Shown: one piece after another, positions 4,476 through 62,578 of the stretch | Layout of the letters: the number at the start of each line of letters is the position of its first letter | Position numbering within the stretch: position 1 is the first letter of the stretch | Source of the DNA: Allofranklinella schreckenbergeri | GTDB lineage: Bacteria > Pseudomonadota > Gammaproteobacteria > Burkholderiales > Burkholderiaceae_C | Direction: 5' to 3' | NCBI RefSeq assembly: GCF_003703475.1 | Contig: NZ_RDQM01000001.1 | Coordinates: 147,044-211,043, forward strand | DNA length: 64,000 nt | Position numbers and translations under genes: made by a program | Notes under the pieces: model-generated | What the model saw: only the letters and a program-made list of their open reading frames with translations | Database searches by the model: none | What the model was told of the DNA's origin: nothing

Positions 4476-4480
4476 ATTTA

Positions 4481-4552
4481 CAATTCAAAGTAAATTCAAA
4501 ATAACCACCATCATGCCGAAACAAGGCAGTTTTTTATCCTATTGATTTATAA
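4481..4552. repeat. AT-rich nested-palindromic intergenic repeat, copy A (core CATGCCGAAACAAGGCAG)
   Basis: Left arm ttcaaagtaaa, central hairpin, right arm ttttatcctattgattt. Member of the 16-copy family. Confidence 0.6.
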
Positions 4553-4788
4553 ATAAAACAACCCAAGCCTGCGCAGCACAGCGCGCCAGCCAAGGCGCTA
4601 CACTGCGCACCTTTTGCCGCACTGCCCGCCCCGTGAAGGACAGCCCTTTGCCGGGCGGGCAGCGCTTCATTTGTCCTTGGAGCCTGTCCTCAAAATCCAC
4701 GCGCCGCGCTCATCCCCGGGATTGGGCGCCCTGCCACGGTTTTGGGGACAAGCGCTTTCTGGCCATCGCACCTTGCAGGAGTGCCCTC

Positions 4789-7122
4789 ATGAAATTTCGC
4801 TTCCCCATCGTCATCATTGACGAGGACTACCGCTCCGACAACACCTCCGGCCTGGGCATTCGCGCGCTGGCCGAAGCCATCGAGAAAGAAGGCTTTGAAG
4901 TCGTCGGCGCCACCAGCTACGGCGATTTGCGCCAGTTTGCCCAGCAGCAAAGCCGCGCCAGCGCCTTCGTGCTCTCCATCGACGACGAGGAACTGGCCGA
5001 AAGCGAAGGCGACCAGGAGGCCGAAGTCATCGCCAAGCTGCGCGACTTCATCGGCGAAGTGCGCCGCCGCAACGACGAAGTGCCCATCTACATCCACGGC
5101 GAAACCAAAACCAGCCAGCACCTGCCCAACGACATCCTGCGCGAGCTGCACGGCTTCATCCACATGTTCGAGGACACGCCCGAATTCGTCGCGCGCCACC
5201 TCATCCGCGAGGCCAAAAGCTATCTGGAGAGCATCCAGCCGCCGTTTTTCAAGGCCCTGCTCGATTACGCCGACGACGGCTCCTACTCCTGGCACTGCCC
5301 CGGCCACTCCGGCGGCGTGGCCTTCCTCAAAAGCCCCATCGGCCAGATGTACCACCAGTTCTACGGCGAAAACATGCTGCGCGCCGACGTGTGCAACGCC
5401 GTGGAGGAGCTGGGCCAACTGCTGGACCACAACGGCGCCATTGGCGAGAGCGAGCGCAACGCCGCGCGCATCTTCAATGCCGACCACTGCTTTTTCGTCA
5501 CCAACGGCACCAGCACGTCCAACAAAATCGTCTGGCACCACAACGTGGCGCCGGGCGACGTGGTGGTGGTGGACCGCAACTGCCACAAGTCCATCCTGCA
5601 CAGCATCATCATGACCGGGGCGATTCCCGTCTTTCTCAAGCCCACGCGCAACCACTACGGCATCATCGGCCCCATCCCCAAGGATGAGTTCGAGCCCGCC
5701 ACCATCCGCAAGAAAATCCGCGCCAACCCGCTGCTCCAGGGCGTGGACGCGAAAAAGGTCAAACCCCGCGTGCTGACGCTGACGCAATCGACCTACGACG
5801 GTGTGCTCTACAACACCGAAACCATCAAGCAAATGCTCGACGGCTACGTGGACAACCTGCACTTTGACGAAGCCTGGCTGCCCCACGCCGCCTTCAACCC
5901 CTTCTATGGCACCTACCACGCCATGGGCCGCAAGCGCCCCCGCCCCAAGACCAGCGTGGTCTATTCCACCCAATCCATCCACAAACTGCTGGCAGGCATC
6001 AGCCAGGCCAGCCACGTGCTGGTGCAGGACTCGCAAAAGCAAAAGCTCGACCGGGCCTTGTTCAACGAAGCCTATCTGATGCACACCAGCACCAGCCCGC
6101 AATACAGCATCATCGCCAGTTGCGACGTCGCCGCCGCCATGATGGAGCTGCCCGGCGGCCAGGCGCTGGTGGAAGAAAGCCTGCTGGAGGCGCTGGACTT
6201 TCGCCGCGCCATGCGCAAGGTGGAAGAAGACTTCGGCAAAAACGACTGGTGGTTCAAAGTCTGGGGGCCGGAAAAACTCGCCGAACACGGCGTGGGCCGC
6301 TCGGACGACTGGATCATCCGCGGCAGCGATGACAGCAGCAGCGCCAGCGAAGCCGCGCCCGCCAAGGGCCGCAGCCGCAAAGCCCGCAAGGCTTCGAGCA
6401 ACTGGCACGGCTTTGGCGACCTGGCCGACGGCTTCAACATGCTCGACCCCATCAAGGCCACCATCGTCACGCCCGGGCTGGATCTGGACGGGCACTTTGC
6501 CGACACCGGCATCCCCGCCGCCATCGTCACCAAATTCCTGGCCGAGCACGGCGTGGTGGTGGAGAAAACGGGCCTGTACAGCTTCTTCGTCATGTTCACC
6601 ATCGGCATCACCAAGGGCCGCTGGAACACGCTGCTGACGGCCCTGCAGCAGTTCAAGGACGACTACGACAAAAACCAGCCGCTGTGGCGCATCATGCCCG
6701 AGTTCAGCCACCAGCACCCGCGCTACGAGCGCATGGGCCTGCGCGACTTGTGCCAGCACGTGCACGCGCTCTACGCCAAGTACGACATTGCGCGGCTGAC
6801 CACGGAGATTTACCTCTCCGACCTCACCCCCGCCATGCGCCCGGCCGATGCCTACGCCCACATCGCGCGCCGCCAGACCGAGCGCGTGCCCATTGACGAG
6901 CTGGAAGGGCGCATCACCGTCGGCCTGGTCACCCCCTACCCGCCGGGCATCCCGCTGCTCATCCCCGGCGAAGTGTTCAACCGCAAGATCGTGGACTACC
7001 TCAAGTTCGCGCGCGAGTTCGCCACCCAGTTGCCCGGCTTTGAAACCGACATCCACGGCCTGGTAGTGGAAGTGGCGCCCGACGGCAGCAAGCGCTTTTT
7101 TGCTGACTGCGTGGCGCAGTAA
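4789..7122 (+). CDS. Orn/Lys/Arg decarboxylase, PLP fold-type I (biodegradative lysine/ornithine/arginine decarboxylase family)
   Basis: N-terminal wing domain plus major PLP domain (SIHKLLAGISQASHVLV with the PLP-lysine context) and a C-terminal domain. Start refined to ATG 4789 (MKFRFPIVII). Confidence 0.85.
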   Translation: MKFRFPIVIIDEDYRSDNTSGLGIRALAEAIEKEGFEVVGATSYGDLRQFAQQQSRASAFVLSIDDEELAESEGDQEAEVIAKLRDFIGEVRRRNDEVPIYIHGETKTSQHLPNDILRELHGFIHMFEDTPEFVARHLIREAKSYLESIQPPFFKALLDYADDGSYSWHCPGHSGGVAFLKSPIGQMYHQFYGENMLRADVCNAVEELGQLLDHNGAIGESERNAARIFNADHCFFVTNGTSTSNKIVWHHNVAPGDVVVVDRNCHKSILHSIIMTGAIPVFLKPTRNHYGIIGPIPKDEFEPATIRKKIRANPLLQGVDAKKVKPRVLTLTQSTYDGVLYNTETIKQMLDGYVDNLHFDEAWLPHAAFNPFYGTYHAMGRKRPRPKTSVVYSTQSIHKLLAGISQASHVLVQDSQKQKLDRALFNEAYLMHTSTSPQYSIIASCDVAAAMMELPGGQALVEESLLEALDFRRAMRKVEEDFGKNDWWFKVWGPEKLAEHGVGRSDDWIIRGSDDSSSASEAAPAKGRSRKARKASSNWHGFGDLADGFNMLDPIKATIVTPGLDLDGHFADTGIPAAIVTKFLAEHGVVVEKTGLYSFFVMFTIGITKGRWNTLLTALQQFKDDYDKNQPLWRIMPEFSHQHPRYERMGLRDLCQHVHALYAKYDIARLTTEIYLSDLTPAMRPADAYAHIARRQTERVPIDELEGRITVGLVTPYPPGIPLLIPGEVFNRKIVDYLKFAREFATQLPGFETDIHGLVVEVAPDGSKRFFADCVAQ

Positions 7123-7242
7123 CAGCCTGCCCAAGGTCGTTGGCCCCAAATGCGCCAGACAGCCTGGCGCACCCGGCACTCTCACCCGTCGCGCCCTGCG
7201 CAAAGCCTGCCTCACGCAACGCCGCAGGCAGGCACTTCTATC

Positions 7243-7306
7243 ATTCAAAAGTAAAAAAATCACCGAATTTCGGCATGATATGCATAAAATCATTTTTCTT
7301 TTGATG
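7243..7306. repeat. AT-rich palindromic intergenic repeat, copy B (TTCGGCATG core, opposite orientation)
   Basis: ttcaaaagtaaaaaaatc .. accgaatttcggcatg .. tttttcttttgatg. Confidence 0.55.
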
Positions 7307-7359
7307 TAGAAAATACTCCACCTCAAGCGCCGCCACACCGCCCAAAGTTTCCCCCCGCA

Positions 7360-9354
7360 TTGCCCCTCTCGCCCATGCCCCCTGTGGATTTGCAACCCTT
7401 TGCCCAAAGCCCCGACTTTCCCACCGCCTTGCAGCACCTGGTGCGCTACCTGCGCGCCCACGCCACGCGGGCCGACGAGGCCATGCGCGATTTCATCGAG
7501 GCGCTCAAGGCCGATGAAGCCGCCTGCGCCCATCTGGCCGTGCTCTACCACCAATGGCTGCAAGGCTGCCGCCTCTCCAACGGGCTGATCCGCACCGGCA
7601 TCTACTCGCGCCAGGACTTCATGCGCGAACTCAAGCGCCGCATTTACGACCGCCTCAACCCGCCGCCGCACCAGTTGGAGCTGTTCGAGGACGTGCTGCA
7701 AACCGTGCTGCGCCCCAGCGATCTGGACTGGCTCAACCAAATCACCCCACGCCAGTGGCTGCGGCTGCACGAGCAGCTGGGCCATGACGAACTCGGCCCG
7801 CAAAGCCAGCGCTATGTGCGCGAGCAACTGCTGCGCGGCGCGGAAATGCTGGCGCTGTGGGTGGCAGGCGAAGACCTCAACCCCGATCTGATCCGCCTCA
7901 ACCCGCGCCTGCTGGAGGTCGATTCCGCCTTTCTCAGCCTGCAACGCGAGGTGCAAAACCTCGTCGAAGCCGTGCGCGCGGGCCAGCCCCTGCCCGATAC
8001 CGCGCCGCTGGAAGTCATGCTCGACCAAAGCCGCCAACAAGTGGCCCACCTGCGCCGCCTGGGCAACCAAAGCGGCGCCTCGCTGACCACCGCCCACTTG
8101 CTGGAGCGGCTGGAGCAAAGCCTGGACCGGCTCGAAGGCATCCTCACCATCCTCACCGGCGAGCGCGAAGAAAGCAGCGCCCGCGCCTGGCTGGTGCAAC
8201 TGGGGCAAATGCTCAACAGCGGCCTGGAGCAGCGCAGCATCCGCGCCTTCGTGCGCGCCAGCGCGGGCATGCTCAGCAAAAGCATCAGCTCCAGCAAAAG
8301 CGCGCATGGCGAGCACTACATCACCACCACCGCCAAAGAGTGGTGGCACATGCTGCGCTCAGCCGCCGGCGCGGGCATCGTCATCGCCCTGATGGCGCTG
8401 CTGAAAATCGAGATTGCCCGCTGGCAGCTCGCCCCCCTGTGGAGCACGTTGCTCATCAGCCTGAACTACGGCCTGGGCTTTGTCATCGTCCACCTGCTGG
8501 GCTGCACCATCGCCACCAAACAACCGGCCATGACCGCCGCCAGCATGGCCGAGAGCGTGCAGCAAGGCCAAAACAGCCGCAACCTGCCCAAGCATCTGGC
8601 AGAGCTGCTCATCAGCGTCAACCGCTCGCAAAGCGTGGCCGTGCTAGGCAACATCAGCCTGGCCATGCTCACCGCCGCGGCGCTGGCCTGGCTGTACCAG
8701 CGCCACACCGGCGGCGCTTTGCTCAGCGCTGACGAAGTGGCCTATCAGCTCAAGGCACTGCAACCCATCGCCGCGCTGTGGTATGCCGCCATCGCCGCGC
8801 TGTGGCTGTTTTGCGCCGGCATCATCTCCGGCTACTACGACAACCGCGCCGACTACCTGCGCCTGCGCGAGCGCCTGGCCGCCCACCCGGCGCTGCGCTG
8901 GCTGGGCCAAGCGCGCCAGCAACGCCTGGCCGATTACCTGCACGCGCACTTTGGCGCGCTGCACGGCAACTTCTACTTCGGCGTGCTGCTGGGCGTCACG
9001 CCCTACATCGGCCACCTGCTGCACCTGCCGCTGGACATCCGCCACATCGCCTTCTCCTCGGCCAACCTCAGCTACGCCGCCGGCAGCGCCTCACTGGGCT
9101 GGCAGGCGCTGGCGCTGGGCCTGCTGTATGTGCTGATGATTGGCATGGTCAACCTGTGGCTGAGCTTTTTCCTGGCCCTGCGCGTAGCCCTGCGCGCCCG
9201 CGAAACCAGCCTGCCCACCCCCAGCCGCCTGCTCGCCGCCCTGGCCCGCCAAATCCGCGCCCAGCCCCGGGCGCTGTTTTTGCCCGTGGCCGCCAAACCA
9301 GCCGCGACCAAAGACGCCAAAGAGCCAGTCAGCAAGGAGGCGGAAGAGACTTAG
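7360..9354 (+). CDS. Large conserved protein with C-terminal transmembrane helices; resembles the family annotated as 'site-specific recombinase' (PF10136-like); function unknown
   Basis: 664-aa ORF with good codon usage. Soluble N-terminal about 320 aa, then at least six hydrophobic helices. The family assignment is from memory only. Confidence 0.45.
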   Translation: MPLSPMPPVDLQPFAQSPDFPTALQHLVRYLRAHATRADEAMRDFIEALKADEAACAHLAVLYHQWLQGCRLSNGLIRTGIYSRQDFMRELKRRIYDRLNPPPHQLELFEDVLQTVLRPSDLDWLNQITPRQWLRLHEQLGHDELGPQSQRYVREQLLRGAEMLALWVAGEDLNPDLIRLNPRLLEVDSAFLSLQREVQNLVEAVRAGQPLPDTAPLEVMLDQSRQQVAHLRRLGNQSGASLTTAHLLERLEQSLDRLEGILTILTGEREESSARAWLVQLGQMLNSGLEQRSIRAFVRASAGMLSKSISSSKSAHGEHYITTTAKEWWHMLRSAAGAGIVIALMALLKIEIARWQLAPLWSTLLISLNYGLGFVIVHLLGCTIATKQPAMTAASMAESVQQGQNSRNLPKHLAELLISVNRSQSVAVLGNISLAMLTAAALAWLYQRHTGGALLSADEVAYQLKALQPIAALWYAAIAALWLFCAGIISGYYDNRADYLRLRERLAAHPALRWLGQARQQRLADYLHAHFGALHGNFYFGVLLGVTPYIGHLLHLPLDIRHIAFSSANLSYAAGSASLGWQALALGLLYVLMIGMVNLWLSFFLALRVALRARETSLPTPSRLLAALARQIRAQPRALFLPVAAKPAATKDAKEPVSKEAEET

Positions 9355-9363
9355 GCATGCCAA

Positions 9364-9446
9364 TTTACCATTCAAAAAGCAAAAAAATTACCTTGTTTTG
9401 GCAATTTCAGCATCAAATCAATTTCACTCTGATTTGTAAATTCAAG
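9364..9446. repeat. AT-rich palindromic intergenic repeat, copy C
   Basis: ttcaaaaagcaaaaaaatt .. ccttgttttggcaa .. atcaaatcaatttc. Confidence 0.55.
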
Positions 9447-9585
9447 CACCTGGAAGCGACCCCAACGACGTGAAGGTGCGGCGGTATTGCGGTTATCGGG
9501 AGTGCCGCCGCAGACCAGCCCGTTCTGGCGCTGCACACGAACCAGCTTGGCCAAGCGCAGACGCGCTTGGCCAACACTTTTTTGA

Positions 9586-13590
<4,005 letters not shown>

Positions 13591-18197: not shown

Positions 18198-18227
18198 ATC
18201 CCTTACCCCGCCTCAACGAAAAGCACA

Positions 18228-18308
18228 TTATTTACAAATCAAAAAGAAACAAAATATCCTTTTTTCGGCATAATTCGAATCAAATCAATTTTCCAATTGA
18301 TCGATAAG
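18228..18308. repeat. AT-rich palindromic intergenic repeat, copy D
   Basis: atttacaaatcaaaaagaaacaaaat .. ttttttcggcat .. atcaaatcaattttccaattgat. Confidence 0.6.
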
Positions 18309-18324
18309 TAAACACACCCACCCC

Positions 18325-19101
18325 ATGCCCTTTACGGTTCTCATCCCCGCCCGCATGGCTTCTGGCCGCCTGCCGGACAAACCCCTGGCCGACATCGGCG
18401 GCCTGCCCATGGTGGTGCGCGTGGCGCGCCAGGCCCAGCAAAGCCAGGCGCAAACCGTCGTTGTCGCCGCCGATGACGAGCGCATCGCGCGCGCCTGTGC
18501 GCACTACGACATCGCCTGCGTGATGACCCGGCCAGAGCATCCCAGCGGCAGCGATCGCCTGGCCGAAGCCGTCGACATCCTGGGCCTGGACGACCAAGCC
18601 CTGGTGGTCAACGTGCAAGGCGATGAGCCATTCATCCCGCCCGCGCTGATTGACGCGACGGCGCACGCGCTGGCCACCCACGCCCACGCCGTCATGGGCA
18701 CTGCCGCCCACCCCATTGAGCGGCTGGAGGAGTTCACCAGCCCGCACGTCGTCAAACTCGTGCTCAACGGCCAAGGCGATGCGCAGTATTTCAGCCGCGC
18801 GCCCATCCCCTGCTACCGCGACGCGCAGCAGGGCAACTGGTGGCAAGGCGAGGACGTGCAGCCGCTGCACCGCCCCCTGCGCCACATCGGCATTTACAGC
18901 TACCGCGCGGGCTTTTTGCGCCGTTTTCCCACGCTGGCCGCCGCCCCGACCGAGCGCACCGAATCGCTGGAGCAACTCAGAGCGCTCTGGCACGGCTACC
19001 GCATTGCCGTGCATCTTGCGCAGCAAGCGCCCCCGGCCGGGGTAGATACCCCGGAAGATTTGCAGCGGGCACGCCAATGGGCGGCCACGCGCTCGCCTTG
19101 A
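18325..19101 (+). CDS. kdsB: 3-deoxy-manno-octulosonate cytidylyltransferase (CMP-KDO synthetase)
   Basis: [25 protein letters not shown] motifs. 258 aa. Confidence 0.93.
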
Positions 19102-19117
19102 AGGCTTTGGTTGGCAT

Positions 19118-19196
19118 ATTTACCAACCAAAGACAAGAAAATACCCCTACTTCGGCAATCCTCTATTCAATACGAATTTTCTTTGAAATGGAATTA
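19118..19196. repeat. AT-rich palindromic intergenic repeat, copy E (with an extra CTTTGGTTGG/CCAACCAAAG hairpin)
   Basis: ccaaccaaagacaagaaaatacccc .. ttcggcaa .. ttttctttgaaatgg. Confidence 0.55.
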
Positions 19197-19667
19197 TTCG
19201 CGATGATAGGGATGATTCATCAGCAGCGACCAGGCGCGGTAAAGCTGCTCGGCCAGCAGCACGCGCACCAGCGGATGGGGCAAGGTCAAATCCGATAGCC
19301 GCAAGCGCTCATGCGCCTGATCACGCAACGCGCCATCGAGCCCATCAGGCCCGCCGATCAGAAACACCACATCGCTGCCCCGCTCGCGCCAGCCGCGCAG
19401 GCGCTGGGCCAACTGCATGCTCGTGCCCTGCTGGCCACGCTCATCCAGCGCCACCACATGCGCTTGCGGCGGAATCTGCGCCTGCATGCGCTGCGCTTCC
19501 GCAGCCATCATTTGCTGCGCCGTTTTACCGCTGGTGCGCGGTTCGGCTTTGACGGCGCGCAACTCCAGCCGCATATCGGGCGGAAAGCGCTTGGCGTAAT
19601 CTTCATACCCCGCCTGCGCCCAGGCAGGCATCTTTTGCCCCACGGCCACAATCATCAGTTTTCGCAT
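19194..19667 (-). CDS. rlmH: 23S rRNA (pseudouridine1915-N3)-methyltransferase
   Basis: Collinear with E. coli RlmH/YbeA ([51 protein letters not shown]). The start could be the MRKLMIV or the MKLMIV ATG. Confidence 0.88.
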
Positions 19668-21401: not shown

Positions 21402-21448
21402 ACGCCAGCGGGCCAGCGCCGCACAAGCGATGGCCCGCCACCCCCTTT

Positions 21449-21522
21449 TATTTCAATCAAAGGAAATCAATCATCAATAAATACATGCCAAAACACCGGC
21501 ATTTTTTTGCTTTTGATTGAAA
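21449..21522. repeat. AT-rich palindromic intergenic repeat, copy F
   Basis: caatcaaaggaaatcaatcatc .. catgccaaaacaccggcat .. ttttttgcttttgattg. Confidence 0.6.
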
Positions 21523-21526
21523 AGAA

Positions 21527-21561
21527 AGAGGCTCCTTGTCACCAAGGAGCCTCTTTATTTT
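21527..21561. terminator. Bidirectional rho-independent terminator (AGAGGCTCCTTG-tcac-CAAGGAGCCTCT, T-rich on both flanks)
   Basis: 12-bp perfect stem with ctttc upstream and TTATTTT downstream. Lies between convergent msrAB (+) and pilE (-). Confidence 0.8.
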
Positions 21562-21629: not shown

Positions 21630-22034
21630 TCACCGGCCCCAACAATCGCCAATGATGCTGCCCGTAGTGACCCCATTGGCGCCGCGCAAGCCCGTATTGG
21701 TCAGGGTATAGGCGCCGCACTTATCACCTGACTGGCTGCCCTGCGGGGTTGCGGTCAATGTGAACGTCGCCCCATCCGATTGCAACGCAATGGTGTAGCG
21801 CCCATTGGGCACCGTCGTCAAACCGGACGGGAATTGATTGGTCAGTGGATACGTGCCCTGCGCCGTGGCCGCGCGCTCCAGCCACTGCGCGCCTTGCAGC
21901 AAGGCCGAGCGGGCTTCAGCACGATGCCCCCGGCGCACGAACTCCTGATAGCTAGGGTACGCGATTGCCGCAAGAATGGCCACGATCACCACCGTAATCA
22001 TGACTTCGATCAAGGTAAACCCTTGGGCGCGCAT
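21630..22034 (-). CDS. pilE: Type IV pilin-like protein (PilE/minor pilin) with prepilin leader
   Basis: Classic G|FTLIEVMI prepilin cleavage site and N-methylation motif. The last gene of the minor-pilin operon, as in Pseudomonas fimU-pilVWXY1E. Start refined to MRAQGFTLIE. Confidence 0.8.
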   Translation of the reverse strand: MRAQGFTLIEVMITVVIVAILAAIAYPSYQEFVRRGHRAEARSALLQGAQWLERAATAQGTYPLTNQFPSGLTTVPNGRYTIALQSDGATFTLTATPQGSQSGDKCGAYTLTNTGLRGANGVTTGSIIGDCWGR

Positions 22035-22102
22035 CGCCGCAAACTGACGCGAAGCGTGCGCGGGAGTATGTGTCAATACCATGCAGATCTCCTTGGCTTG
22101 GA

Positions 22103-25618: not shown

Positions 25619-25641
25619 GGGAGTCCTCCTCGTACATCATC

Positions 25642-26418: not shown

Positions 26419-26457
26419 GGCTACGACGATTGAAATGGTTTGAACCCAGTGCTGTTA

Positions 26458-27336: not shown

Positions 27337-27366
27337 ATCAATCCCCCACCAATAAAAAACTCGATT

Positions 27367-28032: not shown

Positions 28033-28058
28033 AAATGACTCACCCAATAAGTAGCCAA

Positions 28059-30649: not shown

Positions 30650-30805
30650 ATTCACCAGAGCGTCAGGCGTATGCACCAGTCGCTCGCAGGCCAGGGTTGG
30701 GGCCAAAGGCCCGCCCTGCCGGTGCCGGTGGCCGCCCGCTGAGGCTGATGAGGCCGACATGGGCGTTGCGCATCCGGTATGCCGCGCGGCGTAGGCGTCT
30801 GACAC

Positions 30806-36751: not shown

Positions 36752-36859
36752 AGCAGCGCGCCGCTGCCGCTGTTGTTTGGCAGGGCCAACATGCCTGTTT
36801 TGGAGCGAGTGGCCACAGAGCTGCAACTGGTTCAGTAACCCGCCTGCAACCCACTTTAA

Positions 36860-36936
36860 ATTCCAATTCAAAGGATAAAAAAATACCTTGCTACGGCAAG
36901 GTATTCATTGATTCCATTTTCCTTATTGGAAAACAC
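36860..36936. repeat. AT-rich palindromic intergenic repeat, copy G
   Basis: ttccaattcaaaggataaaaaaat .. accttgctacggcaaggtat .. tccattttccttattggaa. Confidence 0.6.
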
Positions 36937-36948
36937 TAGACCACACGC

Positions 36949-38739: not shown

Positions 38740-39447
38740 ATGAGCCAAAACCACGATACCCCCACACGCCCGGCAGCCTCGCCCATCCCCGCAACCGCGC
38801 CAAGCGCATTCCCCGCCGACATCTACACCGAGCCACGCGGGGATGTGGACACACTGGCCAATCTGGGGCCGCTGGCACGCATGGCCGGCGTCTGGCAAGG
38901 CACGCGCGGGGTGGATGTCAAGCCCAAAGCGCAGGGGCCGAAAACCCAAGACTATGTTGAGCGCATCGAGCTGCAACCCATCGACGCACAAACCAATGGC
39001 CCGCAGTTGTTCTACGGTTTGCGCTACCACACCCACATCACCAAGCCCGATCAAGTCAAGACCTACCACGACCAAACCGGCCATTGGCTGTGGGAACCTG
39101 CCACGCACACCGTCATCCACACCTTGAGTATTCCGCGTGGCATGGTGGTGATGGCGGGCGGCATCGTCGCCCCCGATGCCGATGAGTTCGAGCTGGTTGC
39201 GCGCCTGGGCGACCCGGTCTTTGGCATCTGCTCCAACCCGTTTCTGGACCACGCCTTCAAAACCGTGGAGTTCCGCATCCAAGTCGGCTTCAACGCCGAC
39301 GGCTCCTGGTGGTACGACGAAGATACGGTGATGCAAATCCTGGGGCAAAGCGAGCTGTTTCACCACACCGACCGCAACCACCTGACCAAAATCGCCGATG
39401 CCACCCCCAACCCCCTGGCGTTGGCGGCACAGCAAGGTGCGCAATAA
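38740..39447 (+). CDS. Heme-binding beta-barrel (nitrobindin/THAP4-like, DUF1794) domain protein
   Basis: LGPLARMAGVWQGTRG motif and an overall length consistent with the nitrobindin-like lipocalin fold. Pro/Ala-rich N-terminus. Confidence 0.5.
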   Translation: MSQNHDTPTRPAASPIPATAPSAFPADIYTEPRGDVDTLANLGPLARMAGVWQGTRGVDVKPKAQGPKTQDYVERIELQPIDAQTNGPQLFYGLRYHTHITKPDQVKTYHDQTGHWLWEPATHTVIHTLSIPRGMVVMAGGIVAPDADEFELVARLGDPVFGICSNPFLDHAFKTVEFRIQVGFNADGSWWYDEDTVMQILGQSELFHHTDRNHLTKIADATPNPLALAAQQGAQ

Positions 39448-39520
39448 AACAAATCAAAGGAAATAATCATCCTTTATTAAAATACCGAAACAAGGATGTT
39501 TTATTTCCTTTGATATAGAA
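39448..39520. repeat. AT-rich palindromic intergenic repeat, copy H
   Basis: aaatcaaaggaaataatcatcc .. ataccgaaacaaggatg .. ttttatttcctttgatatag. Confidence 0.6.
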
Positions 39521-39538
39521 ATACCTGAGCAAAACGCC

Positions 39539-40384
39539 ATGCAGCCCTCCCTGCTGTGCGAACACCGCGTCGATCCTGAGCAACGCCAGCGCATTCTCGA
39601 GGCCCTGGCGCAGATTGAGCGCACGCACGACGTGCGCGTACTGTTTGCATGCGAGTCCGGTAGCCGCGCCTGGGGCTTTGCCTCGCCCGACAGCGACTAC
39701 GACGTGCGCTTTATCTACGTGCACCGCCTGCCCTGGTACGTCAGCGTAATGGCGCAGCGCGATGTGATTGAGCTGCCCATGGACGCTGTGCTGGATGTCA
39801 ACGGCTGGGATTTGCGCAAAGCCCTGGGCTTGCTGCACCAATCCAACCCCACGCTGCTGGAGTGGTTGCGCTCGCCCATCGTCTATCGGCAGGACGAGGC
39901 CGCCATGGCCGATTTGCACGCGCTGGCGCACACGCATTTCTCGCGCGTGCGCGGCTGGTACCACTACGCCAGCATGGCGAAAAAGAACTTCCGCGAATAC
40001 CTGCAAGGCCCGCAGGTGCGCACCAAGAAATACCTGTACGTGCTGCGCCCGCTGCTGGCCGCGCGCTGGATTGAGCAGCACGCGACAGGCACGCCGCCCA
40101 TGGTGTTTGCCGAGCTGGCGCGCCAGACGCTGGATGCGCAGCGCGACGCCGCGCTGCTGGAGGCGATCAACGATTTGCTGGCCCTCAAGATGCGCGCTGG
40201 CGAAGCGGCTTTAGGCCCGCGCCGCCCGGCGCTGCACGCCTTCATCACCCAAGAGCTGGAGCGCCACGCCGCCCATGCGCTGCAAGCGCCGGCTCCGAGC
40301 GGCGACGCTTCGGCTTTGGACGCCTTTCTCTATCGCCATGCTTGCCGCTTTGAAGCCCAGGCGACGACGCATGACAGCCCCTGA
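39539..40384 (+). CDS. Predicted nucleotidyltransferase (Pol-beta superfamily, PF10127-like)
   Basis: GSRAWGFASPDSDYDVRFIY matches the GS..(D/E)xD nucleotidyltransferase motif. 281 aa. Confidence 0.55.
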   Translation: MQPSLLCEHRVDPEQRQRILEALAQIERTHDVRVLFACESGSRAWGFASPDSDYDVRFIYVHRLPWYVSVMAQRDVIELPMDAVLDVNGWDLRKALGLLHQSNPTLLEWLRSPIVYRQDEAAMADLHALAHTHFSRVRGWYHYASMAKKNFREYLQGPQVRTKKYLYVLRPLLAARWIEQHATGTPPMVFAELARQTLDAQRDAALLEAINDLLALKMRAGEAALGPRRPALHAFITQELERHAAHALQAPAPSGDASALDAFLYRHACRFEAQATTHDSP

Positions 40385-40385
40385 A

Positions 40386-40466
40386 TTTTACAAAACAATA
40401 TAAAAACTATTTGAATACAGAATTGCCTAAATAAGGCAATTTTTTGTATTTTTGATATAGAAAATA
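40386..40466. repeat. AT-rich palindromic intergenic repeat, copy I (diverged)
   Basis: tttacaaaacaatataaaaac .. aattgcctaaataaggcaatt .. ttttgtatttttgatatag. Confidence 0.5.
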
Positions 40467-43759: not shown

Positions 43760-43861
43760 ATCCTAATCGCGCCAGGCCCGGCCCCGGGGCGCGCCAGGGC
43801 GTGCAGCGCGCCAAATGGGCGCACATAGCCTGCCAACGCCACAGCCCGCCAGGGCTCTTAT

Positions 43862-43940
43862 TTTACAAATCAAAGGAATAATAATCACCCTGTTTTGGCA
43901 ACATGGCAATCAAGTTGAATTCACTTTGTTTTGCAATCAT
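43862..43940. repeat. AT-rich palindromic intergenic repeat, copy J (partial right arm)
   Basis: tttacaaatcaaaggaataataatcaccc .. tgttttggcaa. Confidence 0.5.
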
Positions 43941-45328
43941 TACAACTCCAGGCCACCCTGCTGGGCCGGGGGCGTTTTGCGGCGCACGGCGCGGGGTTTG
44001 GGCACCTGTAGCGCCACTTGCCCTTGCGCCAGGCGCGCTTGCACCGTCTGCCCGGGCTGCAAGGCGGCCGCATCGCGCACCACCTGGCCTGTGGTTGTGG
44101 TCAGGATGGCATAGCCTCGCTCGAGTACCTGCTGCGGGTCGAGCATGCGCAGGCGCAGGGCGGCTTGCTCCAGCGCCCGGGCCTCTTGCAGCACGCGCTG
44201 CTGCGCGCCCGCCTGCCAGCGCTGGGCCAGCGCCTGCAAGGCCTGGCTGTGCTGTTGCCCCTGGCGTTGCACCTGCCATTGCAGGCGCTGGGCGGCGCTG
44301 GCCAGCGCGCTTTGGTGGCGCAGCAATGCCAGCGAGGGGCGCGCCAGGGTGCGGGCGGCTTGCTGCAAGCGCTGGCTGTGGCGCTGCAAAGGCTCGTCCA
44401 CCGCCTGCGCCAGCCGGTCGTGCGCCTGCTGGCAGGCTGCCAGGGCCTGGGCCTGTGGGATGGCCGCCAGCTCGGCGGCGGCTGTGGGCGTGGGCGCGCG
44501 CACATCGGCGCACCAGTCGGCGATGGTGACATCGCTCTCATGCCCCACGCCGGCGATCACGGGCACCGGGCTTTGCACGATCAGCCGCGCCAGCGCGGGG
44601 TCATTGAAGGCCCACAAATCTTCCATTGAGCCGCCGCCGCGCACCAGCAAGATGGTGTCCACCTCCACCACGCCGCCGTCTTGCCGGGGCCAGCGCCGCT
44701 GCGCGTACAAGGTGCGCAGCGCCTGGCACAGCGATTGCGGCGCCCCCGCGCCCTGCACCAGCGCGGGGGCCAGCAGCACGGGCACGTGGGGGGCGCGGCG
44801 GCGCAAGGCGCTGATGACGTCGCGCAGCGCCGCCGCGTTGGGCGAGGTGACCACGGCCACGCCGCGCGGCACGGCGACCGGGGTACGCTTGCGGGCGGTG
44901 TCGAACAAGCCCTCTTGCTGCAAGGCGTCTTTCAGGCGCAAAAACTGCTCGTACAACTGCCCCAGCCCGGCGCGGCGCATGTGCTCGACCACCAACTGCA
45001 AATCGCCGCGCGCGCCATACACGCCCACCCGGCCCTGCACGACGACGCGCTCGCCCTCGCGCGGAGTAAAGCCCAGCAGGCTGGCCGCGCGCCGGAACAT
45101 GGCGCAGCGCAACTGGCCTTGCGCATCTTTGAGGGTGAAGTACCAGTGGCCGCTGCCCGCTTGCGTCAGGGAGCTGATTTCGCCCTCCACCGCCACGGCG
45201 CCAAAGCGCGCCTGCAAGGCATCGCCAATGGCCAGGCACAGCGCGCCCACGGGCCAGATGTGGGGCGCGCCTCGCGCGGCGGTGGCGGCGGTGGCACCCT
45301 CGCCCGGGCCCCAAGGGTTATGCATCAT
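43940..45328 (-). CDS. xseA: Exodeoxyribonuclease VII large subunit
   Basis: OB-fold N-terminus (GEISSLTQAGSGHWYFTLKD..RCAMF) and catalytic domain. Its 5' end overlaps the xerC stop by about 10 nt, so the true start may be a few codons downstream. Confidence 0.88.
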   Translation of the reverse strand: MMHNPWGPGEGATAATAARGAPHIWPVGALCLAIGDALQARFGAVAVEGEISSLTQAGSGHWYFTLKDAQGQLRCAMFRRAASLLGFTPREGERVVVQGRVGVYGARGDLQLVVEHMRRAGLGQLYEQFLRLKDALQQEGLFDTARKRTPVAVPRGVAVVTSPNAAALRDVISALRRRAPHVPVLLAPALVQGAGAPQSLCQALRTLYAQRRWPRQDGGVVEVDTILLVRGGGSMEDLWAFNDPALARLIVQSPVPVIAGVGHESDVTIADWCADVRAPTPTAAAELAAIPQAQALAACQQAHDRLAQAVDEPLQRHSQRLQQAARTLARPSLALLRHQSALASAAQRLQWQVQRQGQQHSQALQALAQRWQAGAQQRVLQEARALEQAALRLRMLDPQQVLERGYAILTTTTGQVVRDAAALQPGQTVQARLAQGQVALQVPKPRAVRRKTPPAQQGGLEL

Positions 45329-49515: not shown

Positions 49516-49604
49516 CAAATTTACAAATCAAAAAGACACAAAATCACCCAATTTCGGCAACGCGGCATTAAAATCAAATTTCCAATGAAATGGAATTGAT
49601 GCAC
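49516..49604. repeat. AT-rich palindromic intergenic repeat, copy K
   Basis: tttacaaatcaaaaagacacaaaatcaccc .. aatttcggcaa .. aaatcaaatttccaatgaaatgg. Confidence 0.6.
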
Positions 49605-49624: not shown

Positions 49625-50839
49625 TTGCCCATGCCCCCCGCGCCCCTGCCCTCTTTTGCCACCCGCCTGATCGACTGGCAACGCACGCACGGCCGCCACG
49701 GCCTGCCCTGGCAAGGCACACGCGATCCCTATCGCGTCTGGCTCTCGGAGATCATGCTCCAGCAAACCCAGGTGCAAACCGTGCTGGCGTACTTCCCGCG
49801 CTTTATCCAGCGCTTTGCCGATGTGCAAGCGCTGGCCGCCGCCAGCGCCGATGAAGTCATGCAACTGTGGAGCGGCCTGGGCTACTACAGCCGCGCGCGC
49901 AACCTGCACCGCGCCGCCGGGCAAGTCGTGGCGCAGTTTGGCGGGCAATTTCCCACCCAAGTCCAGGCCCTGCAAAGCCTGCCAGGCATTGGCCGCTCCA
50001 CCGCCCACGCCATCGCCGCCTTTTGCGCGGGCGAGCGCGTCTCCATCTTCGATGCCAACGTCCAGCGCGTCGTCGCCCGCTACCTCGCCTTTGAGGGCGA
50101 CCTGGCGCAAGCAGCCCATGTGCGCCAGCTCTGGGCCTTGGCCGATGGCCTGCTGCCCGCGCCCGATACCGATTTGCGCCAGGCCATGCCCGCCTACACC
50201 CAGGGCCTGATGGATCTGGGCGCCACCACATGCACACCCCGCCGCCCGCAGTGCCCGCGCTGCCCCGTGGCGCAAGACTGCCGCGCGCTGCGCACCGAGC
50301 GCGTGCTGAGCTACCCCGTCAAAACCCGCAAACTCAAACGCAGCAGCGAGACCTGGTACTGGCTGGTGCTGGCCGACGGCCCATTGCACGCGCCCGGCAC
50401 GCATGTGCTGCTGGAAAAGCGCCCCGAGCGCGGCATTTGGGCGGGGCTGCATTGCTTTGCCGTGCTGCCCAGCCAAGAGGCGCTGCTGGCCCGCCTGACC
50501 CATTACACCGAAGCCGCTGCCCTGGCCGGTTGGCCTGGTTGTGCCGGTGGCGCCGATCAGGCGGCGCGCCCGGCCCCTGCGGTGCAATGGCACAGCGGCT
50601 TTCGGCATGTGCTCACGCACAAGGATTTGCTGCTCATCCCCGCCCTGGCCCGCCTGCCGCACGCTGGCGCACAGCCCCGCCCCGCGCTCTGCGTCGGGCC
50701 GCAAGAGAATGGCGCGCCGCTGCGCTGGGTGGCCGTGGGCAACATCCTCAGCGGCGCTGTGGCCACGCCCGCGCCTTTGCTGGCCTGGCTGAAGGCGCAG
50801 CAGAGCTGCACCAGCAGCAGAATTACCAATCAAATTTGA
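49625..50839 (+). CDS. mutY: A/G-specific adenine DNA glycosylase
   Basis: HhH-GPD region (LPGIGRSTAHAIAA), [4Fe-4S] cluster loop C-x6-C-x2-C-x5-C, C-terminal NUDIX-like domain. Confidence 0.9.
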   Translation: MPMPPAPLPSFATRLIDWQRTHGRHGLPWQGTRDPYRVWLSEIMLQQTQVQTVLAYFPRFIQRFADVQALAAASADEVMQLWSGLGYYSRARNLHRAAGQVVAQFGGQFPTQVQALQSLPGIGRSTAHAIAAFCAGERVSIFDANVQRVVARYLAFEGDLAQAAHVRQLWALADGLLPAPDTDLRQAMPAYTQGLMDLGATTCTPRRPQCPRCPVAQDCRALRTERVLSYPVKTRKLKRSSETWYWLVLADGPLHAPGTHVLLEKRPERGIWAGLHCFAVLPSQEALLARLTHYTEAAALAGWPGCAGGADQAARPAPAVQWHSGFRHVLTHKDLLLIPALARLPHAGAQPRPALCVGPQENGAPLRWVAVGNILSGAVATPAPLLAWLKAQQSCTSSRITNQI

Positions 50840-50904
50840 ATAAAAAAACCGGGAATTTCAATACCATATTGCCAAAGCAATGATTGAACATTTCCTTTGA
50901 TCGG
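50824..50904. repeat. AT-rich palindromic intergenic repeat, copy L (diverged core)
   Basis: ccaatcaaatttgaataaaaaaacc .. gggaatttcaataccatattgccaaa .. tttcctttgatcgg. Confidence 0.5.
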
Positions 50905-50923
50905 GAAAGCAGCGCCACCAGAA

Positions 50924-52476: not shown

Positions 52477-53604
52477 TCACAACGGCGCGCCAGGCGCTGC
52501 AAAAGGCTGTAGCGGGGACGATGACGGGGATGCTTGCAGGCAGGAGGCGTGCAGCCCGCCTGCGAACGCGCTTGGGTAACGCCATTGCAGGCCCAGCTCG
52601 CGCTTGATGCGGGTGTTGGGCAGGCGGCGCGATTCGCGCAAAAAGCTCATGCGGTTTGCGCCCAGCGCCTGCTCGGCCTCGGCCAACGAAAGGCGCGGCG
52701 GGCGCGGCAGGCCCAGCACGTCTGCGGCCTGATCGAAAAACTCGCCCAGCTTCATCACGGCATCGTCCACCGCGTTAAACACCCGCATGGCGCGCACACG
52801 CCAGACGGCCAGCCAGCAGGCACGGGCCAGGTCGTCGGCGTGGATGCGGCTGATATACACATCCTCGCGCGCATGCAGCACCGGCGCGCCGCTGCGCAGG
52901 CGTTGTGCGGGCGAGCCGAGGGCGCGATCGGGGGCGTAAATACCAGGCGCGCGCAAGATGGCCACAGCCACGCCACGGCGGGCCAGCGCACGCATGCGGC
53001 GCTCGGCATCGACGCGGCGCACCGCCCGCGCGCTGCCGGGGGCCACGGGGCGGGTTTCGGGCGCCCAGTCGCCGCCGCAATCGCCATACACGCCGGTGGT
53101 GGAGACATAGGCCAGCGCACGCAAGCCTGCGGCCACAGGCGCGCCAGAGCGTGTGTGACGGGCAGAGGCAGAGGCAGAGGCAGAGGCAGAAGCGGCAGAG
53201 GCAGCGCGGTAGCGACGCCATTGGCGCACGAAGTGGGTGGCGCGCTGGTCCGTCACGCCCGTAGGCTGCGGCGGCGCCAAATAAAGCACGCGGGTGGCCC
53301 ATGCGGCCACGCGGCGCAGTGAGGCGGGTTGGTCCAGATTGCCCAGCACCGGAGTGATGCCCGCCGCACGCAGCAGGGGCTGGCGCGCAGCCTGGGAGGT
53401 CAGCGCCAGCCAATGCGGGCGGGCGGGCGCGGCAGATTGGGCAAACTGGCGCACGGCGCGCAGGCCCACATCGCCGCACCCAATCACCAGCACCCGCTCG
53501 CGCCGAAAACGCGCGGGCAGGCCGCGCCTGGGCCGGGTGCCTGGGGCGGAGCGAACAGCAGCGGAGCGGGCAAACCGGCGAGTCAAACGGCCAGAGGCAG
53601 GCAT
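52477..53604 (-). CDS. NAD(P)-binding Rossmann-fold protein (NAD-dependent epimerase/dehydratase / SDR-like) with an internal poly-(Ala-Ser) tract
   Basis: ERVLVIGCGDVGLRA dinucleotide-binding motif. Internal ASASASASASA is encoded by a (GCAGAG)n tandem repeat. The N-terminal 35 aa may be an over-extension. Confidence 0.55.
   Translation of the reverse strand: MPASGRLTRRFARSAAVRSAPGTRPRRGLPARFRRERVLVIGCGDVGLRAVRQFAQSAAPARPHWLALTSQAARQPLLRAAGITPVLGNLDQPASLRRVAAWATRVLYLAPPQPTGVTDQRATHFVRQWRRYRAASAASASASASASARHTRSGAPVAAGLRALAYVSTTGVYGDCGGDWAPETRPVAPGSARAVRRVDAERRMRALARRGVAVAILRAPGIYAPDRALGSPAQRLRSGAPVLHAREDVYISRIHADDLARACWLAVWRVRAMRVFNAVDDAVMKLGEFFDQAADVLGLPRPPRLSLAEAEQALGANRMSFLRESRRLPNTRIKRELGLQWRYPSAFAGGLHASCLQASPSSSPLQPFAAPGAPL
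53155..53205. repeat. Hexanucleotide tandem repeat (GCAGAG)n, about 7 imperfect units, inside the NAD-binding gene
   Basis: ggcagaggcagaggcagaggcagaggcagaagcggcagaggcagc; in-frame, encodes Ala-Ser repeats on the minus strand. Confidence 0.7.
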
Positions 53605-53693
53605 GGCAAGACGTGCAAAAGGGCGGCAAAAAGGGGCAAAGGGAGGGGTTGAGCCAAAAGCCTGTTCAAAGGCAGGGCCTGCGGCGACAAATA

Positions 53694-53780
53694 CCCATCA
53701 ATCAAATCAAAGGAAAATCAAACTCAACACCATCATGCCGAAATAGGCATGAATTTTTTCCTTTTGATTGATAAAAAATC
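53694..53780. repeat. AT-rich nested-palindromic intergenic repeat, copy M (best-preserved copy)
   Basis: atcaatcaaatcaaaggaaaa .. CATGCCGAAATAGGCATG .. ttttttccttttgattgat. The outer arms and the inner hairpin are both perfect inverted repeats. Confidence 0.7.
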
Positions 53781-53840
53781 ACACTCAAAGGCACTCCAAG
53801 CCTGCAAAAGGCTGAACGGGCGCCCGCCCCTCCTTGCGCC

Positions 53841-54614
53841 TTATTTCTCGGCAAAGGCGCGTTCGACCACGAAATCGCCCGGCGTGGAGGTGTTGCCCTC
53901 CACAAAGCCGCGCTGTTCGAACAGCTCTTTCAAATCCGCCAGCATGGCCGGGCTGCCGCAAATCATGACGCGGTCTTCCTCGCGGCTGATCTCGGGCAGG
54001 CCCAGATCGGCAAACAGCTTGCCGTTTTCGATCAGCGTGGTGATGCGCCCCTGGTTGCGAAACGGCTCGCGCGTGACGGTGGGGTAGTACAGCAGCTTGC
54101 CCTTGATGTATTCGCCCAGCAGTTCATGCTCGGGCAGGGTGTGGCAAATCAGCTCCTGATACGCCAGCTCGTTCACAAAGCGCGTGCCGTGCACCAGGAT
54201 GACTTGCTCAAAACGTTCGTAGGTTTCCGGATCGCGGATGGTGCTGAGAAACGGCGCCAGGCCGGTGCCGGTGGAGAGCAAATACAAACGCTTGCCCGGG
54301 CGCAGGTAGTTGAGCAGCAGCGTGCCCGTGGGCTTGCGCCCCACCAGCAGGGTGTCGCCGGGCTGGATGTGTTGCAGGCGCGAAGTCAACGGGCCGTCGG
54401 GCACTTTGATGCTGAAAAACTCCAGATGGTCTTCGTAATTGGCGCTGGCAATGCTGTAGGCGCGCAACAAGGGCTTGCCATCGACGCGCAGGCCGATCAT
54501 GGTGAAGTGCCCGTTGGAAAAACGCAGCGACGGATCGCGCGTGGTGGTGAAACTGAACAGCGTGTCGTTCCAGTGGTGGATGGAGAGGACTTTTTCTTCG
54601 TTGAATGCGCTCAT
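53841..54614 (-). CDS. fpr: Ferredoxin-NADP+ reductase
   Basis: Collinear with E. coli Fpr (QRAYS FAD-binding, GTGLAPFLS, MICGSP NADP-binding motifs). Confidence 0.9.
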   Translation of the reverse strand: MSAFNEEKVLSIHHWNDTLFSFTTTRDPSLRFSNGHFTMIGLRVDGKPLLRAYSIASANYEDHLEFFSIKVPDGPLTSRLQHIQPGDTLLVGRKPTGTLLLNYLRPGKRLYLLSTGTGLAPFLSTIRDPETYERFEQVILVHGTRFVNELAYQELICHTLPEHELLGEYIKGKLLYYPTVTREPFRNQGRITTLIENGKLFADLGLPEISREEDRVMICGSPAMLADLKELFEQRGFVEGNTSTPGDFVVERAFAEK

Positions 54615-55584: not shown

Positions 55585-55594
55585 ATGCAGGTGC

Positions 55595-56299: not shown

Positions 56300-56311
56300 G
56301 AACGGCTCTCC

Positions 56312-57897: not shown

Positions 57898-57930
57898 GAA
57901 AACTCCTGTGGGAGGGTTGCGTAATAAGCC

Positions 57931-57978: not shown

Positions 57979-58085
57979 AGAGCGTGTTCGGCGTCTTGGC
58001 GCGCAAGCTCAGCGGCCAAATGGGCCATGCGGCCATGCGGCGCAGCGCCTGGCCACTTGCTCCAGGCGTGGCAAGCCGTACATTT

Positions 58086-58160
58086 CATCTATCAAAAGGA
58101 AAACAAATGCCCTGTTTTCGGCAAGATAGGCAAGCACCCTCTTTTCCTTTGATTGAAATT
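58086..58160. repeat. AT-rich palindromic intergenic repeat, copy N (inverted core orientation)
   Basis: atcaaaaggaaaacaa .. atgccctgttttcggca .. ctcttttcctttgattgaaat. Confidence 0.65.
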
Positions 58161-58167
58161 TCAGAAT

Positions 58168-58240
58168 AACCAATCAAAGGAAAACCAGCTTCAATCACAA
58201 CATGCCGAAAACGGGCGGTTTACTTTCCTGATGATCTGGA
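58168..58240. repeat. AT-rich palindromic intergenic repeat, copy O (tandem to N; degenerate right arm)
   Basis: caatcaaaggaaaacc .. acatgccgaaaacgggcgg .. tttactttcctgatgat. Confidence 0.6.
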
Positions 58241-58255
58241 ATAAGAAACGGATTT

Positions 58256-61786: not shown

Positions 61787-61889
61787 CGCCTTCGTTCAGC
61801 CTGCCGCCACGCCCGCGCCCAGCGGGCGTTTTTCATGGACGCGCACCATCGCGCCAGCGCTCCGCCCCCGGTTTGCACCGCCTTGGCCG

Positions 61890-62495
61890 GTGCGAAAATC
61901 GCCCCTCATGAAAAACATCGTCATCCTCATCTCCGGCACTGGCTCCAACATGGCAGCCATTGTCCAGGCCCAGCGCCAGCAGCAATGGCGCGAGCGGCAC
62001 CAGGCCGAAGTCGTCGCCGTCATCAGCAACCGCGCCGATGCCGCCGGTTTGCAAAAAGCCCAGGAGGCGGGCCTGGCCACGCAAGTGGTGGAGCACAAGA
62101 GCTTCCCCACCCGCGAAGCCTTCGATGCCGAGCTGGCCCGCGCCGTGCAAGCCTACGACCCCGCCCTGGTGGTGCTGGCGGGCTTCATGCGCGTGCTCAC
62201 GCCCGTGTTCGTGGAGCCGTTCGAGCGGCGGCTGATCAACATCCACCCCTCGCTGCTGCCAGCTTTTCCCGGCCTGCACACCCACCAAAGGGCGCTGGAT
62301 GCAGGCTGCCGCTTCACCGGCGCCACCGTGCATTGGGTCACGCCCGAGCTGGATGCCGGCCCCATCATCGACCAGGTGGCCGTGCCCATCCTGCCCGGCG
62401 ATACGGCCCAAAGCCTCACGGCCCGCGTGCAGACGCAGGAATACCTGCTCTACCCCCGCGCCATTCTTCAGGCGCTCCAGACGATTACAGCCTAA
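61890..62495 (+). CDS. purN: Phosphoribosylglycinamide formyltransferase
   Basis: ILISGTGSNM N-terminus and the HPSLLPAFPG catalytic motif. Confidence 0.9.
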   Translation: MRKSPLMKNIVILISGTGSNMAAIVQAQRQQQWRERHQAEVVAVISNRADAAGLQKAQEAGLATQVVEHKSFPTREAFDAELARAVQAYDPALVVLAGFMRVLTPVFVEPFERRLINIHPSLLPAFPGLHTHQRALDAGCRFTGATVHWVTPELDAGPIIDQVAVPILPGDTAQSLTARVQTQEYLLYPRAILQALQTITA

Positions 62496-62498
62496 CCA

Positions 62499-62578
62499 CC
62501 CAATCAAAGGAAAAACAACTCAATACCCATCATGCCAAAACAGACATCTTTGTTTTCCTTTTGAATTATAAAATCCTT
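62499..62578. repeat. AT-rich palindromic intergenic repeat, copy P
   Basis: caatcaaaggaaaaacaactcaataccc .. atcatgccaaaacagacat .. tttgttttccttttgaatta. Confidence 0.6.

Follow-up and report, generated by a model that had tools for sequence, protein, structure and literature searches.

A dense family of 84-bp AT-rich repeats at gene ends in Allofranklinella schreckenbergeri, probably old mobile elements of the MITE kind

Allofranklinella schreckenbergeri is a bacterium of dog and cat mouths that belongs to the Comamonadaceae. In a 64-kb stretch of its DNA (contig NZ_RDQM01000001.1, positions 147,044 to 211,043, hereafter the window), in which ArgS and KdsB are 99% and 100% identical, respectively, to A. 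schreckenbergeri proteins, the 63% GC background is broken by short AT-rich islands that are mostly intergenic. What are these islands, how did they come to lie where they do, and do they serve the host? We find 16 copies of a single 83- to 84-bp repeat in the window, which most probably (we put the probability at roughly 0.6) represents an old family of small non-autonomous mobile elements of the kind known as MITEs (for miniature inverted-repeat transposable elements). The family is real and apparently undescribed, and its kind is already known.

A repeat family with fixed length and conserved arms

Repeat finding together with alignment of the AT-rich gaps gave rise to one family only. A profile built from 16 copies and searched with nhmmer over the window recovered these 16, with E values ranging from 1e-9 to 2e-16, in agreement with a preliminary description of this DNA that had counted at least 16; beyond them, nhmmer found only self-palindromic echoes of the copies, none above noise. 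The arm motif ATCAAAGGAAAA, allowing at most one mismatch, occurs 10 times when 0.14 occurrences are expected from shuffled sequence. With a GC content of 29.7%, as against 63.1% for the window (rather than the approximately 66% previously estimated), the copies are split evenly between the strands, eight (+) and eight (-), and together make up 2.1% of the DNA analyzed. Their local density, about 250 per Mb, is approximately twice the maximum of 123.4 per Mb reported in a census of MITEs (PMC11602168), which bears out the earlier impression that it is high. Since the 9.5 kb past the end of the window contain no copy, the window may be unrepresentative and this density may fail genome-wide. Were the window representative, the family would be among the densest small-repeat families reported in any bacterial chromosome, comprising about 2% of the DNA and the majority of the AT-rich islands in a GC-rich genome. 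As for novelty, no Rfam model matched the elements, whether gathering thresholds were applied or hits up to E ≤ 1 were allowed, blastn of one copy (53694-53777) against plasmids gave no match, and a search of a full-text literature collection with the element motifs and the genus name returned nothing relevant, so the suggestion that the family had not been described stands.

The consensus reads (A/T)TTTAC-AATCAAAGGAAAA ... TTTTCCTTTTGAT-TTGTAAA(A/T), that is, a left arm AATCAAAGGAAAA and a right arm TTTTCCTTTTGAT-TTGTAAA (arm sequence TTTACAAATCAAAGGAAA), which form inverted arms of about 18-20 bp around a spacer of fixed length. Boundaries between the element and its GC-rich flanks are abrupt. 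When 28 copies are aligned, the best-conserved columns, carrying 1-2 bits, are those of the arms (AATCAAAGgAAA, TTTCCTTTTGAT), of a central TGCC(G/A)AA and of the T-run that follows it, while the spacer columns hold almost no information. The arm centers are about 58 bp apart, and TGCC(G/A)AA lies on the dyad axis between them (the dyad center is column 44 of alignment A4, within TGCC), whereas the center of an inner hairpin is found about 6 bp further to the right. The TGCC in the 5' half of this hairpin is invariant, and its pairing partner in the 3' half is variable. There are almost no indels in the alignment despite a mean pairwise identity of 59-64%. Two sub-lineages can be told apart by the inner hairpin, CATGCC...GGCATG and ATTGCC...GGCAAT. 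These features call for several corrections to the preliminary description. The core that it proposed, ATGCCGAAA-N-AGGCAT, has one exact match and three with at most two mismatches, the conserved part being TGCC(G/A)AA. Its two sequence subtypes are one asymmetric element seen in two orientations, 'TTTACAAATCAAAAAGAAAC' being the reverse complement of the right arm. Finally, the copies that it placed in tandem at 58086-58240 form a head-to-head inverted pair (58082-58244).

Insertion, distribution and age of the copies

Evidence that the element has been inserted comes from the junction between the Trm112 and kdsB genes. These genes overlap by 4 bp in Corticibacter populi, in COT-174 and in contig L161, and are separated by 26 bp in L160, a 1-kb metagenome contig whose KdsB is 79% identical to that of the window. 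In A. schreckenbergeri the gap measures 127 bp, of which 84 bp are element. The site is therefore empty in four relatives and filled in A. schreckenbergeri, so that the copy at 18229..18312 was inserted where two genes of an operon meet. A separate copy is found in L160, where it overlaps or supplies the kdsB stop codon. The window copy downstream of kdsB points the other way and is only 58% identical to it, which makes the L160 copy an independent insertion.

The distribution of the family is patchy. Twelve copies are found on four contigs, totaling 32 kb, of the Comamonadaceae metagenome-assembled genome (MAG) S17M_Sa_44_sub, whose Ctp protein is closest to that of Corticibacter (84%). This was the one informative MAG among the matches listed in a pattern scan of genome contigs, the rest being chance matches in AT-rich genomes. 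A tighter pattern produced 25 matches in public metagenome contigs, all put down to chance, none of which reached an nhmmer E value below 1e-4 (a weak one, in L144, had E = 5e-4), and no matches in viral contigs. No copy was present in the approximately 160 kb sampled from Brachymonas, COT-014, COT-174, Corticibacter populi, Lampropedia puyangensis and an ENA contig. The family provides a practical marker of Allofranklinella and the few relatives that share it. On MAG contig L013, positions 1736-1909 hold a direct tandem pair of elements with approximately 7-12 bp of GC-rich DNA between them. This pair and the head-to-head pair of the window suggest a tendency of copies to insert beside existing ones.

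These observations are the basis for reading the family as MITE-like, as the preliminary description had done. The elements are small, non-coding and dispersed in both orientations, they have inverted arms and sharp boundaries, their distribution is patchy, one junction is interrupted by an insertion, some copies lie in adjacent pairs and some supply stop codons. In the scenario that we favor, a trans-acting enzyme would have inserted copies wherever a GC-rich chromosome offers one of its few AT-rich sites, namely around the stop codons and terminators at gene 3' ends, while insertions into promoter-bearing divergent gaps would either not have been tolerated or never have occurred. A protein would read the arms and the central motif as sequence, and the copies would by now be old and fixed in the species. 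Because element ends supply stop codons, and thereby new C termini, they are also a source of annotation artifacts.

Several findings weigh against the MITE reading, or at least against recent activity. Strains RDQK (L120) and RDQL (L152) are collinear with parts of the window, and all nine copies that could be compared between the window and these two further strains are present, so that the empty site seen between lineages has no counterpart as a presence/absence polymorphism within the species. Similarly, the copy between purN and purU is filled in all six sequences available (the window, one further strain and four metagenome contigs). No target-site duplication was detected among 28 copies at any boundary offset for lengths of 2-9 bp, the best result being a common 2-mer in 6 of the 28 when 1.6 are expected, after thousands of combinations had been tried. 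However, direct repeats fade in old MITE copies (PMC10969869), and the missing duplication consequently counts against recent insertion and not against the MITE class. The highest pairwise identity among the 28 copies is 78%, for a mean of 59-64%, and copies within a genome are no more alike than copies from different genomes. This indicates no recent burst in the sample, although the window is a small part of the genome and close pairs of copies could be missed. Neither a transposase, nor a RAYT gene, nor a longer element with the same ends was found in the window or the other loci examined, and conservation is lower at the extreme termini than in the inner part of the arms, the reverse of what is seen in many ends recognized by transposases. 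The MITE label is a provisional one, given that target-site duplications, polymorphic sites, near-identical pairs of copies and a known parent element are all missing.

Three candidates for a source or class of the element were discarded. A PF10136 'site-specific recombinase' gene (7360-9354 (+), 636 bits) has a copy on each side, in the same orientation, and was considered as the cognate enzyme. The same pair of decarboxylase and recombinase genes is kept in element-free COT-174, and its flanking by elements is hence probably coincidental. An origin from IS200/IS605 was rejected on orientation and anatomy. So was an attC array, since copies of either orientation lie between housekeeping genes, and RYYYAAC/GTTRRRY boxes are absent from the consensus (no dedicated attC model was run).

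Placement at gene ends, hairpins and divergence between strains

Using a gene map that combines family scans with annotated strain loci, we placed the 16 copies as follows (coordinates, strand, context and nhmmer E value).

4472..4555 (+): tandem gap upstream of a decarboxylase gene, left end overlapping the lldD stop codon; E = 2e-15
7235..7317 (-): tandem gap between the decarboxylase gene and the PF10136 recombinase gene, identical in RDQK; E = 3e-14
9362..9445 (-): convergent gap between the PF10136 gene and pepN; E = 1e-14
18229..18312 (-): inserted between Trm112 and kdsB; E = 1e-13
19117..19199 (-): convergent gap between kdsB and rlmH, overlapping the rlmH stop codon; E = 8e-14
21444..21526 (+): convergent gap between msrAB and a pilE-like gene, abutting a terminator hairpin at 21525-21556; E = 5e-13
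36858..36938 (-): convergent gap between rtcB and a hemerythrin gene; E = 2.5e-12
39441..39523 (+): overlapping the stop codon of a THAP4-like heme-binding gene, upstream of rlaP; E = 3e-12
40382..40465 (+): convergent gap between rlaP and ppx, overlapping the rlaP stop codon, with a terminator-like hairpin; E = 5e-11
43860..43942 (-): tandem gap on the - strand, overlapping the xseA stop codon, upstream of phoR; E = 1e-15
49518..49601 (-): tandem gap between a dynamin-like gene and mutY; E = 3e-14
50828..50910 (+): the most degenerate copy, convergent gap between mutY and trkH, overlapping the mutY stop codon; E = 1e-9
53694..53777 (+): the copy nearest the consensus, tandem gap (- strand) between a ferredoxin-reductase-like gene and an epimerase gene; E = 2e-16
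58082..58165 (-): gap between parC and an amino-acid ABC transporter operon, left copy of the head-to-head pair; E = 6e-16
58161..58244 (+): right member of the pair, right end 12 bp from the parC stop codon; E = 3e-15
62491..62574 (+): overlapping the purN stop codon, upstream of purU; E = 4e-14

As had been noticed before, every copy is intergenic; each also adjoins at least one gene 3' end, and many touch or overlap the upstream stop codon. All six convergent gaps of the window hold a copy, while none of the six divergent gaps does (Fisher p = 0.002), and nine of about 24 tandem gaps are occupied. Promoter-like matches overlap the elements only twice, which is chance level.

This placement could be that of an intrinsic terminator or 3'-end RNA-stabilizing hairpin, similar to the pneumococcal SPRITE repeats, in which the inner hairpin TGCC-GAAAC-GGCA, with TTTTnTTT after it, would end the transcript of the upstream gene. 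The preliminary description had raised this possibility for a nested palindrome. The nested hairpin exists in the consensus and folds in about half of the single copies; the others do not form it, and RNAalifold predicts no consensus pairs. When 18 arm and 6 inner pairs are scored, 67.4% of cells pair, compared to 68.4% when the 3' partners are shuffled among copies, and 433 of 500 shuffles reach the observed count. Pairing is thus no better than with shuffled partners, which reveals no compensatory change. Likewise, complementarity in the 18 column pairs of the arms, at 72.5% over 29 sequences, belongs to the consensus and is not kept by covariation. What is conserved in the element is sequence, not structure. 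When 5' and 3' halves were swapped between copies, allowing register shifts, the inner hairpin of native copies was more stable than that of the chimeras (-5.8 versus -4.56 kcal/mol, p = 4e-4; p = 0.08 for the arms), but the effect is modest and shared descent within the two sub-lineages could produce it.

Terminator function does find support in the position of each copy beside a gene 3' end, in the conserved T-run after the inner hairpin, in the five of 16 copies called by a simple terminator scan, in the native-versus-chimera difference and in the slightly better folding of the T-run strand compared to its complement (p = 0.02). The strongest inner hairpin, that of the copy at 36858..36938, reaches -14 kcal/mol and is followed by a T-run. 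Against this, the mean is just -5.7 kcal/mol (range 0 to -14), with several copies near 0, and the copies in tandem gaps have no preferred orientation, four lying in the same direction as the upstream gene and four in the opposite one. Moreover, one copy sits within the Trm112-kdsB operon, the inner hairpin of the copies at 53.7 and 62.5 kb is broken in strain alleles, and the scan detected GC-rich terminator hairpins that are separate from, and beside, the copies at 9.5 and 21.5 kb. Both of these hairpins are strong, GC-rich and located in convergent gaps: the one at 9547-9574 is followed by a T-run on the + strand, and the one at 21525-21556 is bidirectional, with T-rich flanks on both strands. 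It is probably at these hairpins that transcription in the two gaps really terminates. We therefore consider it improbable that the family as a whole is one of terminators, a function that is plausible only for the copies with strong hairpins. Within the MITE reading, some copies may act as terminators, in that those with a strong hairpin facing the upstream gene could add a weak intrinsic terminator to it; termination would then be a by-product and not the property that defines the family. The element may also affect where transcripts end and how the DNA around it recombines.

The same placement, combined with conservation of sequence, leads to another alternative, in which the element serves the host in cis in the manner of repetitive extragenic palindromes (REPs) and bacterial interspersed mosaic elements (BIMEs), possibly as a MITE that has been domesticated. 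Its arms and TGCC(G/A)AA would be recognized on double-stranded DNA by a DNA-binding protein, which could be gyrase, a nucleoid protein or a boundary factor, and the element would serve to mark or relax transcription-unit ends, above all at sites of convergent transcription. Such a role, which we regard as doubtful, is compatible with a mobile origin. It would fit the occupancy of all convergent gaps, the central motif on the dyad axis with arms conserved as sequence in the absence of covariation, a length that is fixed at 83-84 bp with almost no indels at approximately 40% substitution divergence, and the finding that copies from two genera are as similar as copies within a genome. It sits less well with the 15 of about 24 tandem gaps that have no copy and with the element-free DNA sampled from the nearest genera, which is unexpected for a core chromosomal system, and no candidate binding protein is known.

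Comparison of strains also bears on this role. Element columns that are conserved among paralogues diverge by 2.0% between strains (8/393), whereas columns that are variable among paralogues diverge by 10.8% (39/360), a difference with a Fisher p of 5e-7. This difference counts in favor of a host-serving role. Against it, the conserved columns evolve no more slowly than third codon positions (2.0-3.4%) or non-element intergenic DNA (3.3-4.5%). It is the variable columns that are unusually fast and create the contrast; the conserved ones are not demonstrably slow. In its most specific form, the host-serving alternative would make the element a boundary module that has been domesticated and is bound by protein, a counterpart of REP/BIME in the Comamonadaceae with unrelated sequence, whose 84-bp geometry selection would keep because a host factor binds it where transcription units end. 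We think this rather unlikely. If true, it would explain why every convergent gene boundary is occupied, why the same columns are constant among paralogues, strains and two genera, and why other parts of the element change faster than neighboring spacer DNA. More generally, the family is a further example for the debate on whether intergenic repeats of high copy number are only selfish or persist because they do something for the host, and column-specific conservation between strains makes that question testable here. As for known sites, reading the arms by eye against the consensus sequences of an IHF site, an FNR box, parS or a dif-like site, we found that none fits.

Differences between strains are concentrated in three element-bearing gaps, at 18.2, 53.7 and 62.5 kb, as sharp peaks that include some flanking spacer. 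Across 18200-18400, 53500-53900 and 62400-62600 there are 6-17 differences per 100 bp, compared to 0-4 in the flanking genes, and at 53694..53777 alone 14 of the 84 positions differ in RDQL; element-bearing gaps outside these hotspots hardly differ from strain to strain. A sampled paralogue seems unlikely to have caused this by gene conversion: among the copies sampled, which are a minority of those in the genome, none matches any of the three divergent alleles better than the orthologue does, although one MAG copy ties with it at 81%. Short recombination imports combined with constraint in place, conversion by unsampled copies, or local hypermutation could each account for the pattern. Another peak, of 29 differences per 100 bp between the window and RDQL, with 0-4 around it, lies at 53100-53200 within the epimerase-like gene and could be a recombination tract or a misalignment driven by indels.

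A last alternative is raised by the gene next to the copy at 21444..21526. The product of this gene (21630-22082), a type IV pilus minor pilin, matches PF16732 (ComP_DUS) with 87.8 bits, and could be the receptor for a DNA-uptake signal used in natural transformation. The 12-mer uptake sequence of Neisseria starts with ATGCCG, as does the element core, and the three element-bearing gaps that are short hotspots of divergence between strains could be read in the same way. Nevertheless, the best match for the globular domain of the pilin among solved structures is Pseudomonas aeruginosa PilE (4noa) rather than ComP, the top structural match overall (PAK pilin, 1oqw) is driven largely by the N-terminal helix, and the gene closes a fimU-pilVWXY1E-type cluster. 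Nor is the core a dispersed short motif, since seven of the nine occurrences of TGCCGAAA in the window are within elements. No 10- to 12-mer recurs at approximately one per kb in the window, and no Neisseriaceae uptake-sequence dialect is enriched there. Unlike known uptake sequences, the element occurs about once per 4 kb and is exclusively intergenic. With the core confined to elements, no k-mer at the expected spacing and a PilE-like pilin, we rejected this explanation as highly improbable.

Other features of the window were recorded along the way. The minor-pilin cluster (fimU-pilV-pilW-pilX-pilY1-pilE type) occupies a low-GC island at 21630-28613 (-) with 50-56% GC, in which the pilE-like gene has 62% GC; the PilY1/PilC-like gene is 82% identical between strains, its neighbors being 98-99% identical. 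Within the RNA-repair locus rtcR ... rtcB-rlaP there are two tRNA-like sequences. The first, beside rtcR at 30804-30927 (+), scores 48.9 bits with the Rfam tRNA model, is not called by ARAGORN and is overlapped by a sub-threshold match to YrlA (Y RNA-like; 30.7 bits, E = 0.012), while the second, a fragment at 32814-32879 (+), matches the tmRNA model (E = 3e-5). This pair looks like a diverged Y RNA-like module. Upstream of a lactate permease gene, positions 347-417 (+) give a sub-threshold match to the Burkholderia small RNA ncS54 (29.7 bits for a gathering score of 43, E = 0.01). Finally, the adjacent purN (61890-62495) and purU (62616-63473) genes have a common 63-nt stretch that is 78% identical (62314-62376 and 63262-63324), which is due to their common formyltransferase domain and not to a repeat element.

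Comparison with known repeat systems

The element resembles terminator repeats of the SPRITE type in being dispersed, in lying at gene ends and in having a hairpin-like core followed by a T-run. It differs from them by a hairpin that is weak and variable, by its unbiased orientation and by the fact that the arms and TGCC, and not the stem, are best conserved. Correia elements (CREE/NEMIS) of Neisseria are 100-155 bp long, have 26-bp terminal repeats and a TA duplication, and many of them carry an IHF site. Like these, the element is a high-copy intergenic inverted repeat that makes up approximately 2% of the DNA, lies beside or overlaps gene ends and may affect transcripts. In contrast, it is 84 bp long, its arm sequence is unrelated, it has no TA duplication and its host, one of the Comamonadaceae, belongs to a different order; no IHF consensus was noticed in it on reading by eye.

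REPs are GC-rich palindromes of 20-40 nt with a conserved 5' tetranucleotide of the GTAG type, and BIMEs of Escherichia coli are bound by gyrase and IHF. With these REP/BIME/REPIN systems, which have hundreds of extragenic copies and are moved by RAYT (Y1) transposases, the element shares a location at gene 3' ends and in convergent gaps, an architecture of inverted pairs, the lack of a target duplication and a possible role as a protein-binding site. Unlike REPs and REPINs, its arms are AT-rich and not self-complementary, its consensus has no GTAG and there is no RAYT gene in the window.

The favored comparison is with MITEs, which are shorter than 500 bp, AT-rich and non-coding, have terminal inverted repeats of 4-30 bp and reside in AT-rich intergenic DNA, where copies can overlap gene ends and some transcripts can fold into a long hairpin (PMC10969869, PMC3184786). 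The element departs from that description in having no detectable target duplication and no known parent insertion sequence, and in combining unusually diverged copies (mean pairwise identity 59-64%) with a constant length. As in MITEs, however, it is below 500 bp, AT-rich, non-coding, intergenic and dispersed, is bounded by inverted arms and overlaps gene ends (PMC10969869, PMC3184786).

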